DNA of 63,825 bases, the filler included, from Octopus bimaculoides (taxonomy: Eukaryota), in assembly GCF_001194135.2 (NCBI RefSeq). It is 6 parts of 5 records of this genome, joined end to end, with 100 filler letters (N's around TTAATTAATTAA, not from the genome) between each part and the next. Parts side by side here need not be neighbours in the genome. Positions count along the whole stretch, not along the records: positions 1 to 28,834 come from NC_068983.1; positions 28,935 to 55,738 come from NC_069000.1; positions 55,839 to 57,872 come from NC_068985.1; positions 57,973 to 60,154 come from NW_026427086.1; positions 60,255 to 62,396 come from NC_069007.1; positions 62,497 to 63,825 come from NC_069000.1. One strand, given 5' to 3'. Positions 16,045 to 62,865 of this stretch are shown here, in pieces. The stretch's first letter is position 1. Each line of letters opens with the position of its first letter. The notes beneath the pieces were generated by a model. The model was not told the DNA's origin and did no database searches. It was given only the letters and a program-made list of their open reading frames with translations. The translations under genes and the position numbers were made by a program.

Positions 16045-17719
16045 AACGGCTCCGTGAAGTTATTGCGTGAGTTTATGCTGAAGTGTTTATCGAATTGTTG
16101 CCATTGTTAGTGATTTGAATTGATGTTTGAATTGTTGCCAAAGTTCTTAATTCATTAATTGTTGTTTTGTTTCCCATTGTGGTAAAATGGAGAAAACGCC
16201 GGAGGCAGGCCCAAGTTATGCGACCGCAACGGGCAAAGAAGTAGACGCACGAGAGTTGGAGGACCGCGAGATAAACGTGGAGCCTAGACACCACCTGAAG
16301 AGCTATCGGTCAACGTGACAAAAAGAACGGTTATATTTAAAACCATGAAGGCAGCCGCGAGAAAGATAGAAATCGCACCAATAGAGGCCATAGAGGAATG
16401 TGTTAAGAATATAAAAAGATTCACAACATACATTACGAGAAGGAGAAGATACGCCACTGTAGAGGTGCGCTTCACAACGGAGGAGGAAGCAATAAAGCAC
16501 TCCACAGAGGCAATAAGGACAGACGAATGGGTGCTCTTGCCTTCGTACTGCGGCAAACGTGTCACCAAGGTGCGAGTGGGTAAGGTACCACCTGAATTGA
16601 AAGAAGAATGACTGATGACAGCCATAACGTATAATATGAAAGACGGGAAGATTCTGAAGGCTACAAGGACCCAGAAGGTGAACTACTGGGGATATGGTAT
16701 CGAATTAATGATTCAGGCAACAACGGAGGACTTGAATAGTGTGGTGGATGAGATTATGCTGCCAGAAGATGTGAAGCTGAGAGTTATTGTGGAGGGTAGG
16801 CCGCCAGTATGTTTCTCATGTGGAGAAAGGAGCCACATGAAGGCATGGTGCACCCAAAGAAAGCCACAAACAGAGCAGGAGGAGAGACATGAGAGTGTGG
16901 ACCATGTAGTACAGGAGAAGGCAACAGAAAAAGAAACAGAAAAGAAGCGAAGGGATTCCCTATGGTTAAAAAGAAAAGAAGGAGGCGCGGAGGAATGAGT
17001 TCTCTGTCAGTGAAGCAGAAAGAGACGAGAGAAGAGGTGAGAAAAGAAACTGTGAATGAGAGCAGTAGGAAGGAAAAAGAAAGTAAAAAGAAAGTGGAGT
17101 TATCAGTGGAGAAAGAGTCGGAAACCCAACTGTATGAAGGTGAGATGGAGAGACTATTTATGGAGGAAGAAAAGAGAGAACCAAAAGTCCAAGAGAAAGG
17201 AAAGAAGATGCGAGGAGGAGATGGTGTGTGGTATTATGTGACGTACCCAAAAGATGTTGAAACAGAGAAAAAAATAATCAAGTTTCATTCAATAGTAAGA
17301 GTGAAGGTGCCTTCATACGTCTACGCAGAGGATACGAAGGCAATATTGATTGAAGAGGAAAGCTACAGAAAGTTGAAAGAGATGTGTGGAGATAGTATTG
17401 ACCCACCAGGAGTGGAGGTGGAATTTAAAAAGTTGCCACCAGTGGTGGATTTGAGAGATATCGAACCACTGATGAAGTTCTACTAAAGACAAAAAAGAAG
17501 TATGAAATTAAAGGAAAAAAAGAAAAATTGTAGATAATACATATAACGGTTCAAATGGTACTGCATGGGAGTGGGGCCCATGCGTCCATCTTCATTTTTC
17601 ATTTTTATTTAACTTTCATCTCATTTACATTCGTTTTATGTTTTTTGTCCACACTGTGGTATTGTCTGTCCTTGTGGTGTCCCCATCTATGTTTAGGGCT
17701 TTATGCCTAATAAAGAAAT
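16045..17719 (+). mobile_element. ORF1-only non-LTR retroelement (Tx1/L1-type, HAL1-like), inserted in a SINE
   Basis: 142-nt leader, then a disrupted gag-like ORF (16187-17486), then a ~230-nt 3' UTR ending AATAAAGAAAT with no ORF2. Flanked by CGGTAT at 16039-16044 and 17720-17725, splitting a SINE. Confidence 0.8.
16187..17486 (+). pseudogene. Gag-like ORF1 (RRM-like region + CX2CX4HX4C zinc knuckle + charged linker + C-terminal domain), ~430 aa reconstructed
   Basis: ATG 16187 (MEKTPEAGPSYATAT...), frameshift near 16285, then ORF 16315-16611. In-frame TGA at 16609-16611 (likely TGG) continues into 16615-16998, with VIVEGRPPVCFSCGERSHMKAWC (knuckle 16810-16851). Frameshift near 16940 into ORF 16962-17486. 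Confidence 0.8.
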
Positions 17720-17892
17720 CGGTATTTTGTCTGCCGCTACGTTCTGAGTTCAAATTCCGCCGAGGTCGACTTTGCCTTTCATCCTTTCGGGGGTCGATAA
17801 ATTAAGTACCAGTTACGTACTGAGGTCGGTCTAATCAACTGGCCCTCTCCCTCAAAATTTCGGGCCTTGTGCTTAGAGTAGAAAAGATTATT

Positions 17893-18108
17893 TAAGGCGG
17901 CTACCTGGCAGAATCGTTAGCAAGCCGGGCGAAATGCTTAGTGGTATTTCGTCTGTCTTTACGTTCTGAGTTCAAATTCCGCCGAGGTCGACTTTGCCTT
18001 TCATCCTTTCGGGGTCGATAAATTAAGTACTAGTTGCGTATTGGGGTCAATCTAATCGACTGGTCCCCCGCCCCCAATTTCGGGCCTTGTGCCAAGAGTA
18101 GAAGACAA
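17893..18108 (+). mobile_element. Second SINE copy of the same family in head-to-tail tandem
   Basis: Full head, body (GAGTTCAAATTCC B-box-like) and the same CGGGCCTTGTGC..AGAGTAGAA tail as the first copy. Confidence 0.9.
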
Positions 18109-19946
18109 TAGGTACCCGCCAAGTATTGGAGATCTATTTAACTGAGTGCATTCCATCACAAAGTAAGAAGATTTTTTTTTTTATCTAAATTATAAATACA
18201 TTGTTTCTTGAAAATAAAAGCAATAGAATCAAACTTGTTAGTTAATGATACATTATCAGAATCAAAAAGAAAGAAAGACGATGTCACTGAACTAAAAATG
18301 AAACTAACATAATGCTTTTGAAAGAAGTTATAGCCATTTTCTCGCCACTCAATCAAAATAGACAAAATCCATTTCCATAGTTCTAAAGTATACCTGCTGA
18401 GCTGCTGGCGAATAGGAAAATCTTTCTAAAGTATAAGAAAATAAATTTGCTAATGAATCAATTCATTAAGTGTTTGAGAACTTTCAATCTAAATATAAAT
18501 AACGATTTCTTATATAACCAGACAATGTGGAGGATGATGGTAAAGCAATTGAATATGTGCAAATATATGCCTAAAACTTATTTTATCAGTCCTGGAATGA
18601 TTAAAGATAAAATCAATCACGGTGGGTCTTGATCTCAGAATGGATACGTAAAAATCTAAAAACCACAAGATTTTAGTCTGACAAAGTTTCTACAACTTCG
18701 GAGCCTTATTCTATTTATTTTTGCTCCAGTACAAGCATTACTTCTAGTTTGAAGGAGTTACAGAAACACTTGGGTTTCAGACTAAATGCATTGTAGTATT
18801 TAGTTACGTCCCTTTACGGTCTGCGTTTATATCGACTTGCCTTTTATTACTGCAAGGTGAATTAAGTACTAGAGTCATATTGCCGTTACTTCGATCGAAT
18901 TTAGCCCTATCTATTATAATTATGTGGCTTTGTGCTAAAATAAGAAATCAATATAGATAATTATATTCATTATAATTATTTCATTATATTGCAGCTAATT
19001 AAATTATGTGTTTTCTTGGGGTTTTTAATTAAGTTCTTTGCAGAATTCAACTCAGTTACTGACAAAGTGAGAATGCTTCTATCAAATAATACAGTTTCGA
19101 AGCTTCACGAATATAAGTGTGAGTTAATGTGTGCGCACACACACACGCGCTTACACACGCACACACACACACGCACACACACACACACACACACACACAC
19201 ACACACACACACACACACACACACACACACACACACACACACACACACACACACACACCACACACACACACATGATTGATTGCTATATCCACAAGTTTTT
19301 TTAATTCTCTCTGTTTATTTCCTCGCGTTCTTTTCTGTTGAAGAGTAAAAGACTTTCTCACTTTCCCGAGCGTCAAACTAATACACCTGCTTGTTGTTCA
19401 TACACCTGTCTTCGTCTTTTTATTTTCTATAAACTTCAACGATATATGTGTGTGTGTGTGTGTATGCACATATATATATATGTGTGTGTGTGTGTGTGTG
19501 TGTTTATGCATGCGTGTTGTTACTTTTTATGTATCTATATATGAGTGTATAAAGTATTCATGTATATGATTGCTTAGTAACTATATCCTGTTCTCGAATA
19601 ACAAAAGTATATCCCTTCCAAGGTAGCATGCAAGTATCTGTCAAAGATCCAGGAGCAGTTATTCTTGTTGTCAATGTGTGTTGGTGTCCTCTAGCTGGCT
19701 GGATATGTACTTTTTCTACTGATATGACGAATGTCTTTCCCAAAGTGTTTGTTCAAATAGATGAGCTCGACTGTTCATTGCATACATGCATGCATGTACG
19801 CATGTATGTCAGTATGTATGTATGCACGCATATATGTATTTTATGTATATATGCATGTATGAACTTTTACTTGTGAGAGCATATGTATGTTTATATGCAA
19901 GGAAGTTTTGCTATATGAATGCATAAATTATGTATATCGGTATGTG

Positions 19947-61096: not shown

Positions 61097-61649
61097 ACCT
61101 ACACTTTTCTCTGTAAAATAGGGATAGTTTATCCTGTTCAGGCTATATCATTAGCATTATTCTGCGATTGAGAATTTAAAAAAGCACTTCTTTAACTTTC
61201 TAACACGCTTCTAAAAGCAAGACTTCGTTTGTTTATTTACGTTTGTCGTAATTTGAATTTAATATATTTGTGTGTTGTTTGCGTTATATAGAAAACTCGA
61301 GAGAAAGTGAAATAATTGTTTTTTTTTAACGGTTGAACTCGATGTGGATGAAGCTATAAAGAATGACGTGTAAATATTGAGTTTTAAAATCCATTCGGAT
61401 AGGAAAAAATGTTTTTTTCTATCGAAAGATATTTTTCGTCTTCGTGTTTACGCGCGATTATTCATAGCATTATCTACTTCGAGTTCGCCGTTAAAAAAAA
61501 GAAACAATAAAGAAAACGAATATATTGGTATGTTAAGGTGGTGTTTGGGACATAACAAAAGACAAATATATATTGGTATATTAAGACGATGCTTGGTATG
61601 CAAAGAATTGCCCAAAACGTCACTTCGCTTCCTTCATAAGAGAGCTAAA

Positions 61650-61985
61650 TCTTCGTCGTCGTCATCATCGTCATCGTCATCACCGTTATCACCAACACTA
61701 CTACCACCACCACCATCATCACCACCACCACCAAACCATCATCATCATCATCATCATCATCATCATCATCATCATCATCATCATCATCATCATCGTCCTC
61801 GTCATCATCATCATCGTCCTCGTCATCATCATCATCGTCATCATCATCATCATCATCCTATCATCATCCTCATGATCATGATGATGATGATCATCGTTAT
61901 CATCACCACAGCCACCACCACCACCACCACCACCACCGCCAAACCATCATCCTCATCATCATCATCATCGCTGTCGTCACCAGAA
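61650..61985. repeat. Compound trinucleotide microsatellite (TCG/TCA/CAT/CAC)n, representative of dozens of (TA)n, (CA)n, (GA)n, (TACA)n, (GATA)n, (AAT)n and (ATC)n runs across the window
   Basis: Directly visible; most N-gaps are bordered by such runs. Confidence 0.95.
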
Positions 61986-62650
61986 AACACTACCCTTATA
62001 CGATGTCATCAAATGAGACAAATGATAGGCCATGGTGAAAGCAGTAACAAGGTTTTATATATATATATATATATGTATATATATGTATATATATGTATGC
62101 AAATATGTGTGTGTTTGTGCGTGTGTGTATATATATATATATATATATATGTATATGTGTGTATACACGTGCATATTTATATGTATACATACGCATATGC
62201 ATATACATATATATATATATATACATATACACATACATACACACAGATGCGTGTAAATCACTGCTAAATACATCAAATATCCACCAATAAGAAAACTGTC
62301 AGCGGCGTGTGAAGAAAAAAAAAATTACAGGCAAAAAAAAAAAAAACGAAAAACAAAATCGAAAGGAAGAAACACACACACACACACACACACACANNNN
62401 NNNNNNNNNNNNNNNNNNNNNNNNNNNNNNNNNNNNNNNNTTAATTAATTAANNNNNNNNNNNNNNNNNNNNNNNNNNNNNNNNNNNNNNNNNNNNAAGA
62501 TGCATACATACATACAGACGTACATATATGTCTAATACATACATATAAAATTTATATAAACAGCAGGTTGCAAACTTTCACCAAAAATGAGAATTATAAT
62601 TGTCACTTAATGTGACTAGGGCGTTAAGAAACACACACACATACATATGA

Positions 62651-62865
62651 GGGCGGGGCGCTGGCAGAATCGTTAGCACGCCGGGCGAAATGCTTAGCGG
62701 TATTTCGTCCGTTCAAATTCCGCCGAGGTCGACTTTGCCTTTCATCCTTTCGGGGTCGATTAAATAAGTACCAGTTACGCACTGGAGTCGAGGTAATCGA
62801 CTTAATCCCTTTGTCTGTCCTTGTTTGTCACCTCTATGTTTAGCCCTTGTGGGCAATAAAGAAAT
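62651..62865 (+). mobile_element. GGCGGCGAG-family SINE with an alternative 3' tail
   Basis: Same head and body as the other copies, but ends TTGTCTGTCCTTGTTTGTCACCTCTATGTTTAGCCCTTGTGGGCAATAAAGAAAT (62811-62865). Confidence 0.9.

Follow-up and report, generated by a model that had tools for sequence, protein, structure and literature searches.

Three kinds of retroelement in one stretch of octopus DNA, namely an element with ORF1 only, a SINE and a fragment of a LINE, appear to end in the same 3′ tail. Does this tail mark a common machinery, and if so, which autonomous element supplies it? Here we address this question for the window, i.e., the whole 63,825-nt stretch of Octopus bimaculoides (assembly GCF_001194135.2) along which all positions are counted (Table 1). 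The first-pass annotation read the locus as a three-tier system with one element in each tier and with the family of the LINE fragment as the autonomous partner. The sharing of one tail by LINE, ORF1-only element and SINE has held up, and the fragment as partner has not. Instead of one element for each tier, the ORF1-only tier comprises at least five lineages, and SINEs are the target of two autonomous families.

Table 1. Features of the window discussed in the text
Feature	Position	Strand	Remarks
Host SINE head, 5′ half	15991..16044	+	Variants at 16026 and 16031 travel with ORF1-only elements
H1, ORF1-only non-LTR element	16045..17719	+	Occupies site 2 in the SINE head
H1 ORF1	16187..17486	+	Broken by stops, frameshifts and a short deletion
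Shared 3′ tail of H1	17662..17719	+	4-bp stem and 5-nt loop at 17696-17708, then a 10-nt block
Host SINE 3′ part	17720..17892	+	SINE-R, the other-tail subfamily
Uninterrupted SINE-R copy	17894..18105	+	Both empty targets visible
Empty site 1 (A box)	between 17909/17910		In SINE-R copy 17894..18105
Empty site 2	between 17942/17943		In SINE-R copy 17894..18105
Tx1-A copy	23653..24756	+	5′-truncated, internally deleted; ORF2 pieces 23653-24374 and 24415 onward; 3′ UTR and tail; ATT repeats after
SINE-T, solo tail-bearing copy	62649..62865	+	Not nested in another SINE

The tails of H1 and of the tail-bearing SINE subfamily, SINE-T (62811-62865), lie exactly where they had been annotated. An alignment of 58 columns, in which they agree at 81%, has an E of 1e-7 within the window, and its score was matched by none of 5000 dinucleotide shuffles. 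For the LINE fragment, the claimed 20/25 match to the SINE tail is recovered by eye and is contained in an alignment of 23/28 columns; this is a weaker, post hoc result, its score being reached in 1/5000 shuffles. The fragment is only weakly similar to the H1 tail (53/5000 shuffles reach the score). The SINE-T copy stands on a different part of the window, beyond the joint at 62397-62496, so the annotated span 17662..62865 is not a single locus.

The tails also have a structure in common. The covariation that the first-pass annotation had suggested looking for is present: the 4-bp stem is kept in all tails, with 95% of 64 cells paired against 20-50% in control stems slid along the alignment, changes on both sides occur at 3/4 pairs, and the covariation score was reached in 0/500 shuffles. 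The hairpin is thus supported by covariation, and the 10-nt block 3′ of it is invariant across all 16 aligned tails. Single tail sequences do not fold much better than shuffles (z -3.1 to +1.5). A longer lower stem, predicted in three tails, was rejected because its 3′ side is invariant and covariation there is impossible.

H1 itself is a multi-copy family (40 scored copies among 677 candidates, 83-92% identity). In the window its flanks share 6 nt (16039-16044 and 17720-17725). Although the ORF1 is broken here, copy L002 retains it unbroken; its 448 aa include a CCHC knuckle and, by prediction, a tandem RRM-like region, for which the fold matches to an RRM pair are weak and come from a low-confidence model. 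The ORF1 stop lies about 230 nt before the tail, and 0/19 H1 junctions have an ORF2 in between. H1 insertion is site-specific: among 30 unselected genomic tails, 20 were placed at site 2 by script and 22 by eye, against an expectation for such sites of about 4e-5 per position, and the SINE 5′ half was seen by eye upstream at 21/30 loci. A search of sequencing runs listed no RNA data set with a match. Three RNA runs mapped at 85% likeness covered the H1 body at a depth of 0-40, with reads of either strand, and the SINE at a depth of thousands, figures that neither show nor exclude an element transcript.

The host of H1 is an abundant, putatively tRNA-derived SINE that may correspond to one of the octopus families OR1, OR2 and OK. 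A- and B-box-like motifs were recognized by eye in its head; ARAGORN found 0 tRNA genes, and Rfam matched neither a ribozyme nor a tRNA in the region around H1 (15900-18200). The variant at 16026/16031 was found in 18/35 element 5′ flanks but in only 1/157 intact SINE heads. Because these variants travel with ORF1-only elements, the last 20-30 nt of the annotated head probably belong to the element itself, as a SINE-like leader.

Is the LINE fragment in the window the partner, as first proposed? It belongs to a family here called Tx1-A, and this copy has lost about 1.7 kb of mid-ORF2. Both the hairpin and the invariant block are present in the Tx1-A tail, and the Tx1-A ORF1 is homologous to that of H1 (34% identity over the core). 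However, its tails are followed by ATT repeats in 11/11 cases, and such repeats also stand upstream in 3/4 of its apparent full-length copies. In its tail, too, Tx1-A is one of the families furthest from SINE-T: over the last 34 nt the matching positions number 23-24 for Tx1-A, compared with 25-27 for H1, 32 for the ORF1-only lineage H4 and 31-33 for a sister family, Tx1-B, the nearest of all. Since ATT repeats rather than a SINE follow its tails, Tx1-A is not the SINE-targeting partner, and we regard that proposal as very improbable indeed.

A full-length two-ORF element that bears the tail does exist, and it is Tx1-B, an L1/Tx1-like family of 5.35 kb. All 28 copies that have a 3′ end are at site 2. 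Two full-length copies (L250 and L242) show the SINE 5′ half, an 11-nt duplication, ORF1, and an ORF2 with endonuclease, reverse transcriptase (RT) and zf-RVT regions; Pfam Exo_endo_phos, RVT_1 and zf-RVT were matched on pieces of L250 and L236. The RT is of the L1 group, its best solved-structure match being human LINE-1 ORF2 (E 2e-16), above R2. The homologues returned are unnamed or come from amphibians, lancelet, tick and Argonauta, with no named Tx1 among them; the label Tx1, for Tx1-B as well as in the names Tx1-A and Tx1-C, is presumed, following the first-pass annotation. No intact copy was found among the Tx1-B copies, which are decayed in a gapped assembly. Median pairwise identities of 0.90 for H1 (n=26), 0.89 for Tx1-B (n=12) and 0.90 for SINE-T (n=23) show that the ages of the three overlap.

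It could be argued that none of this requires site-specific insertion, and that each element is a composite retroposon that brings along its own SINE head and SINE tail and was amplified as a unit from a few masters. The SINE-like 5′ leader would fit such an account, as would some SINE dimers that appear to have moved as units. But the 3′ flanks are divided about equally between two SINE subfamilies and represent several diagnostic variants: the hosts of Tx1-B are 18 R, 17 T and 7 unclear, and those of the ORF1-only insertions 27 R, 25 T and 19 unclear. Composite amplification is unlikely given such mixed hosts, and truncated copies that retain host head and duplication (L234, L446 and L455) also speak against it, as does the meeting of unrelated families at the same base, where Tx1-B, H1, H2 and H4 are found stacked in tandem. 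We therefore consider this explanation quite improbable. The 11-nt target site duplication is present in full-length and 5′-truncated Tx1-B copies alike, and because hosts of both subfamilies occur and the truncated L234 keeps head and duplication, the insertions were independent.

H1 is not alone. The ORF1-only lineages, at least five in number and deeply diverged, occupy site 2 or site 1, the latter lying 33 nt upstream in the A box. They are 27-43% identical among themselves and to Tx1-B. In the ORF1 tree, H3, H5 and H6 group with Tx1-B (95/92), and each of H1, H2 and H4 stands on a long branch of its own. At site 2, no ORF2-bearing element with an H-type junction was seen directly upstream in 71 cases, 30 of which had just 1.5 kb upstream. 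The homologue search returned no named homologues of the ORF1-only ORF1 beyond Octopus. Assignment to HAL1 in the strict sense (mammalian and L1-derived) was rejected, as these are octopus elements and their ORF1 has a CCHC knuckle. At one locus, L167, an ORF2 piece adjoins an H2 ORF1.

Such divergence raises the possibility that another autonomous relative, whether a third family, Tx1-C, or one that is unfound or extinct, mobilizes the ORF1-only elements and SINE-T, with Tx1-B sharing site and tail merely by descent. The H1 ORF1 is homologous to that of Tx1-B at just 35% identity and falls outside the Tx1-B group. Tx1-C and the SINE-T tail have 29 upstream nt in common, as well as their last bases, and in its upstream portion the tail of H1, like that of SINE-T, is nearer to Tx1-C than to Tx1-B. 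The target of Tx1-C is the A box of a second SINE, at the base equivalent to site 1. SINE-T was found once inside that same A box (L135). In the first SINE it favours site 1, and 30 loci of that site (about 25 distinct places) and 30 further ones showed no ORF2-bearing element. On the other hand, site 2, which is also occupied by H1-H4, yielded no ORF2-bearing family other than Tx1-B; the terminal 34 nt of Tx1-B are the nearest to SINE-T, and 0/23 Tx1-C tails are in the first SINE. In our judgement an alternative mobilizer is possible though doubtful.

The SINE tier can be examined through its nesting. The SINE-T tail is homologous to the LINE 3′ end, and the expectation that tail-bearing SINEs would insert into their own kind is borne out by SINE-T copies in SINE heads. 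The SINE-in-SINE junction that had been predicted does exist (about 40% of 195 matches), but it is minor compared with the A box, which holds 1,650 of the 8,817 exact SINE-T tails in the genome. At site 2, a SINE body lies upstream in 7/7 loci of that junction type. Nested SINE-T copies appear in part to be amplified dimers. At site 1, about 14 5′-truncated SINE-T tails lack a host head on their upstream side, a pattern in keeping with deletion or with the amplification of dimers and not with fresh targeting. Host-private variants shared across nested pairs, considered as a sign of long duplications, gave no clear signal (6/18 vs 1/31 in a first sample, 9/61 vs 12/136 in a larger one).

Returning to Tx1-B as the partner, we think it probable that this family, which sits with its ORF1-only relatives at one base of the SINE head and shares the hairpin tail with SINE-T, nicks that site and copies its own, ORF1-only and SINE RNAs. 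A point against it is that H1 is looser in its choice of site than Tx1-B (8-10/30 tails off site). In the proposed mechanism, the Tx1-B endonuclease likely nicks the SINE head at site 2, and its ORF2 would perform target-primed reverse transcription in trans, with the RT likely copying all three kinds of RNA into this site. The RT would recognize the tail hairpin and mobilize the SINE in trans, and 5′ joining may proceed through pairing of the leader with the host SINE head. The A box, the commoner site of SINE-T, is probably served by another enzyme of the same lineage. The best candidate is Tx1-C, whose cut in the A box of the second SINE falls at the corresponding base; 3′ microhomology and later SINE dimer amplification may help.

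How does this compare with known systems? In crocodilians, Tx1-Mar and SINEU have a common target within a Mariner DNA transposon (PMC4494074). As in octopus, a Tx1 and a SINE share a target in another repeat with tandem insertions, two preferred positions each have different families, and some crocodilian Tx1 families have a small-RNA-like head comparable with the octopus leader. The difference is that the octopus target is a SINE head, that of the tail-borrowing subfamily included, and that an ORF1-only tier is present in octopus and not reported for Tx1-Mar/SINEU, 'ORF1' having 0 occurrences in the available text of PMC4494074. Among other sequence-specific Tx1s, the Xenopus Tx1 inserts into Tx1D, Keno into U2, and Kibi and Koshi into microsatellites (PMC4494074). 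Tx1-B shares with these the two ORFs, the L1-like character, the APE endonuclease and a fixed multicopy target, and Tx1-A resembles the microsatellite-associated kind; unlike for Tx1-B, a SINE is absent among the targets listed in the part of that source available.

ORF1-only LINEs are known from L1 (HAL1), Jockey (HeT-A) and CR1 (Ag-Sponge), with no Tx1-derived case named in the available portions of these sources (PMC5786205, PMC5753468). The H1-type elements agree with them in having a 5′ UTR, ORF1 and a 3′ tail without ORF2, in being multi-copy and in forming several independent lineages, and differ in their base-precise SINE target and hairpin tail. Dada DNA transposons insert into tRNA genes in clusters at the A box and the anticodon region of these Pol III templates (PMC8869645), much like octopus sites 1 and 2, although Dada is a DNA transposon entering true tRNA genes and the octopus LINEs enter SINEs. 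Finally, an RNA end that matches the target improves insertion in R2 read-through priming (PMC6530143), which may, by analogy, be a model for the SINE-like leader and the 3′ microhomology; R2 differs from the octopus families in its restriction-like endonuclease and 28S rDNA target. The literature searched, to which Repbase and Dfam did not belong, yielded TE-targeting Tx1 and ORF1-only LINEs and no SINE-targeting LINE, so that SINE heads as a LINE target are a class not found in it.

Site-specific retrotransposons normally rely on a repeat of the host, such as rDNA, snRNA genes or telomeres, or else on another transposon, which they have not made themselves. The octopus target is a dispersed SINE, one form of which carries the same tail signal as Tx1-B, so Tx1-B likely copies the very repeat that is its landing site; this would close a feedback loop of LINE, SINE and ORF1-only passenger. 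We lean slightly towards a broader reading, in which a Tx1-like radiation in octopus targets SINE heads and one target SINE is copied by the same machinery, so that the LINE would itself produce the safe places into which it inserts. In this reading, at least five ORF1-only lineages of great age ride the loop, and the members of the radiation are divided among two bases in a single SINE and the A box in a second. Such a loop could explain SINE clusters in octopus genomes. The ORF2 proteins of Tx1-A, Tx1-B and Tx1-C are about 40-60% identical and go with three different targets (ATT repeats, site 2 and the second SINE's A box, respectively), which makes them a natural series on how an APE endonuclease changes its target, a useful question for targeted gene insertion. 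With five long-surviving ORF1-only lineages, the reason for ORF1 retention becomes testable.

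Table. Coordinates of the elements under study and of other features of the window
Feature	Position (strand)	Remark
SINE split by the H1 element, 5′ half of head	15991–16044	
H1 element	16045–17719	5′ UTR, one broken ORF and 3′ UTR
Broken ORF of the H1 element	16187–17486	
SINE split by the H1 element, remainder	17720–17892	
Tx1 fragment, family Tx1-A	23653–24756	about 1.7 kb missing
Second SINE, three uninterrupted copies	near 5580, 35047 and 53148 (+)	
Single-exon ORF, 337 aa	11244–12257 (−)	by eye, resembles a seven-transmembrane peptide receptor
Nested inverted repeats, 159 and 129 nt	31080–31897	82–86% complementary, MITE-like
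Pieces of another LINE type	21800–23630 (−), 36829–37404 (−), 50000–50672 (+)	RTE-like by eye

The first-pass annotation proposed that one 3′ tail is common to an ORF1-only element, a SINE and a Tx1 fragment, and all three tails were found where it had placed them. Six stretches make up the window; the element (16.0–17.7 kb) and the Tx1 fragment (23.7–24.8 kb) lie on one of them and the SINE (62.6–62.9 kb) on another. The element and SINE tails are 81% identical over 58 columns, a score reached by none of 5000 shuffles. Between the Tx1 fragment tail and the SINE tail 23 of 28 columns match, a score that one shuffle in 5000 reached; the score of the fragment tail against the element tail was reached by 53 in 5000.

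The window element belongs to a family that we call H1. A DNA search of the genome (2.34 Gb) gave 677 candidates, among which 40 scored copies are 83–92% identical. In one copy ORF1 is unbroken (448 aa, with a CCHC knuckle); its three named homologues are Octopus bimaculoides proteins, and a low-confidence AlphaFold model (mean pLDDT 53) suggests a weak match to tandem RRM domains (E 2e-4). By eye, the tail is visible in 27 of 30 fetched loci: 21 run into the SINE 3′ half at the same base (site 2, 33 nt downstream of site 1, the A box of the SINE head), three into an element stacked at that base, one retains only the first site bases, and two lie elsewhere. The SINE 5′ half stands immediately upstream in 21 of the 30 (by eye). 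A tail pattern blind to the flanks has 50 exact matches; among the first 30, a script placed 18 before the SINE and 2 before a stacked element, and inspection by eye added 2 before a SINE with a small deletion and left 8 off site, the background rate of such sites being ~4e-5 per position (178 kb of other flanks). L008 and L020 are off-target insertions, the former with a duplication of ~17 nt, which exceeds those at the SINE site. Diverged contigs from a run labelled with a different organism code (X13), compared with window positions 15800–18150, span the whole H1 body, and a second species may therefore also have H1.

The Tx1 fragment is a member of the family Tx1-A. ATT repeats follow all 11 Tx1-A tails seen and lie upstream of three of four apparent full-length copies; the repeat is either the target or part of the tail, and in neither case is it the SINE head. 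Tx1-A ORF2 is about 40–60% identical, in pieces, to that of two other families, Tx1-B and Tx1-C.

Tx1-B is the candidate autonomous partner at site 2. It was met at L185, as an ORF2-bearing element with a SINE-T-like tail (SINE-T being the SINE subfamily with the shared tail) immediately upstream of an H1 copy, and a search with its last 839 nt gave 1,305 candidates and 40 scored copies. The 3′ end is present in 28 of 30 loci, and site 2 comes next in all 28. Upstream extension of 20 loci showed two elements of 5.35 kb, L250 and L242, which contain ORF1 and ORF2 and have the SINE 5′ half and an 11-nt duplication; several others extend to the 5′ junction over gaps in the assembly. Endonuclease, RT and zf-RVT domains were identified by Pfam, and the closest solved proteins to ORF2 are human LINE-1 ORF2; no copy among those examined is intact. 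The junction pattern common to Tx1-B and SINE-T has 195 exact matches, with the SINE-type last base in 40 of the first 100 listed; in 30 fetched loci, a SINE body lies upstream of all seven SINE-type junctions and the Tx1-B 3′ UTR upstream of 22 of 23 of the other type. Both SINE subfamilies serve as hosts, to a similar extent, for Tx1-B and for the ORF1-only elements, and this speaks for insertions that were independent of one another. An Argonauta hians protein (P0195) shares 54% identity with the ORF2 of Tx1-B and 53% with that of Tx1-C, so the ORF2 lineage reaches beyond Octopus.

H1 is one of several ORF1-only families. Exact matches to the tail-to-site-2 junction number 124; the 71 examined comprise, by eye, 19 H1, 40 H2/H2b, 4 H3, 6 H4, one H2-like copy with its 3′ part deleted and one SINE-T. 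ORF1 is out of view in part of them (truncation, gaps), and in none of the 71 does an ORF2 run into the tail. H5 (two loci) and H6 (one locus) are ORF1-only and end at site 1. ORF1 core identity is 27–43% across lineages and 79% between H2 and H2b. In the ORF1 tree, built from 26 rows after three of 29 had been dropped as wrong segments, H1, H2/H2b, H4 and Tx1-A form separate long branches, and H3, H5 and H6 cluster with Tx1-B (support 95/92). The ORF1-only families are old lineages, not recent deletion products of Tx1-B.

Sixteen tails from H1–H6, Tx1-A, Tx1-B and SINE-T align without gaps around a hairpin with a 4-bp stem and a 5-nt loop, 95% paired and with both-side changes in three of four pairs. 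The covariation score was reached by none of 500 shuffles and the count of pairs by 165 of 500, in tests of a kind that relatedness inflates. Over the last 34 nt, matches to SINE-T number 31–33 in Tx1-B, 32 in H4, 21–29 in the other ORF1-only families and 23–24 in Tx1-A. Median pairwise identity is 0.89–0.90 in H1, Tx1-B and SINE-T, whose ages therefore overlap. Five more LINE-like 3′ ends (L198, L072, L212, L401, L402) have other versions of the hairpin tail and other flanks, ATT or ATC repeats among them, and the Tx1-like radiation therefore exceeds the three families studied.

Two variants of the SINE head mark the 5′ flanks of ORF1-only elements: 18 and 13 of 35 such flanks have them, as opposed to 1 and 0 of 157 intact heads. 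In three loci (L241, L245, L247) the duplication is complete, and after it the SINE-like stretch is present once more, this time as part of the element. A target-like leader is thus carried by the elements and usually takes the place of the host's own bases. In six loci (L012, L016, L198, L421, L431, L440) the first bases of the target come directly after an element, and another element begins right behind them; these are stacks at one site, the second element being partly unclassified.

SINE-T itself, where nested in a SINE head, is mostly at site 1. Its tail has 8,817 exact matches, 1,650 of which run exactly into a SINE head starting at the A box. By eye, 17 of the first 30 loci are nested there, nine precede unrelated DNA starting with the same five bases (several with 10–20-nt duplications), and four are otherwise. 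The downstream hosts in 105 tandems are SINE-R, the subfamily with another tail (57), SINE-T (11) or unclear (37), and have diverged further (0.84) than the copies upstream of them (0.88). In five loci (L284, L287, L300, L310, L358) a truncated SINE-T tail is accompanied by a host head and a short duplication, as a fresh insertion would give. About 14 truncated tails, in a sample enriched for truncations, have no host head, as dimers copied whole or later deletion would give, and the 1,650 junctions therefore overstate independent events.

When the DNA upstream of the SINE-T tail was searched for LINE-like sequence, two loci, L403 and L404, came up with ends in the A box of the second SINE, a different family. 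The family, Tx1-C, has 1,294 candidates in the genome. By eye, its tail is seen in 23 of 30 loci and the A box of the second SINE, at the equivalent of site 1, clearly comes next in 21; of the other two, one runs into a gap once four bases have matched and one is joined to the SINE's body. Truncated copies L446 and L455 have a host head and an 11-nt duplication, L448 and L462 have ORF1 and endonuclease pieces upstream, and ORF2 is 55% identical to that of Tx1-B. The Tx1-C and SINE-T tails have their upstream 29 nt in common; Tx1-C has its own hairpin version and a longer spacer before the end.

The system has a fixed site, duplications, a common covarying tail, a leader and overlapping ages. 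In the mechanism we propose, Tx1-B ORF2 would nick site 2 and reverse-transcribe any RNA ending in the tail: its own, those of H1–H4 and, less often, SINE-T. The cDNA end would pair with the host SINE head through the leader, and each insertion would restore the site, leading to stacks. SINE-T, mostly at site 1, would probably use a Tx1-C-like enzyme and 3′ microhomology, which may be likened to R2 read-through priming as described in the available text of PMC6530143.

In the available parts of these sources, known Tx1 targets are Tx1D, U2, microsatellites, Mariner, Harbinger and LTR elements, and one SINE has the same target as a Tx1 (Kojima 2015, PMC4494074); ORF1-only LINEs occur in the L1, Jockey and CR1 clades (PMC5786205, PMC5753468); and Dada targets the A-box and anticodon (PMC8869645). 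The available text on L1-Tx1 families counted in O. vulgaris lacks the words "target" and "nested" (PMC13282606), and that on octopus SINEs or tandem SINEs mentions no targeting LINE (PMC4758252, PMC4824008, PMC11481361). No report of a SINE-targeting LINE or an ORF1-only Tx1 was found in the literature searched; family-level notes in Repbase Reports or Dfam may anticipate part of the system. Every ingredient has precedent, the combination and the target are without precedent in what could be searched, and the system is real and multi-family.
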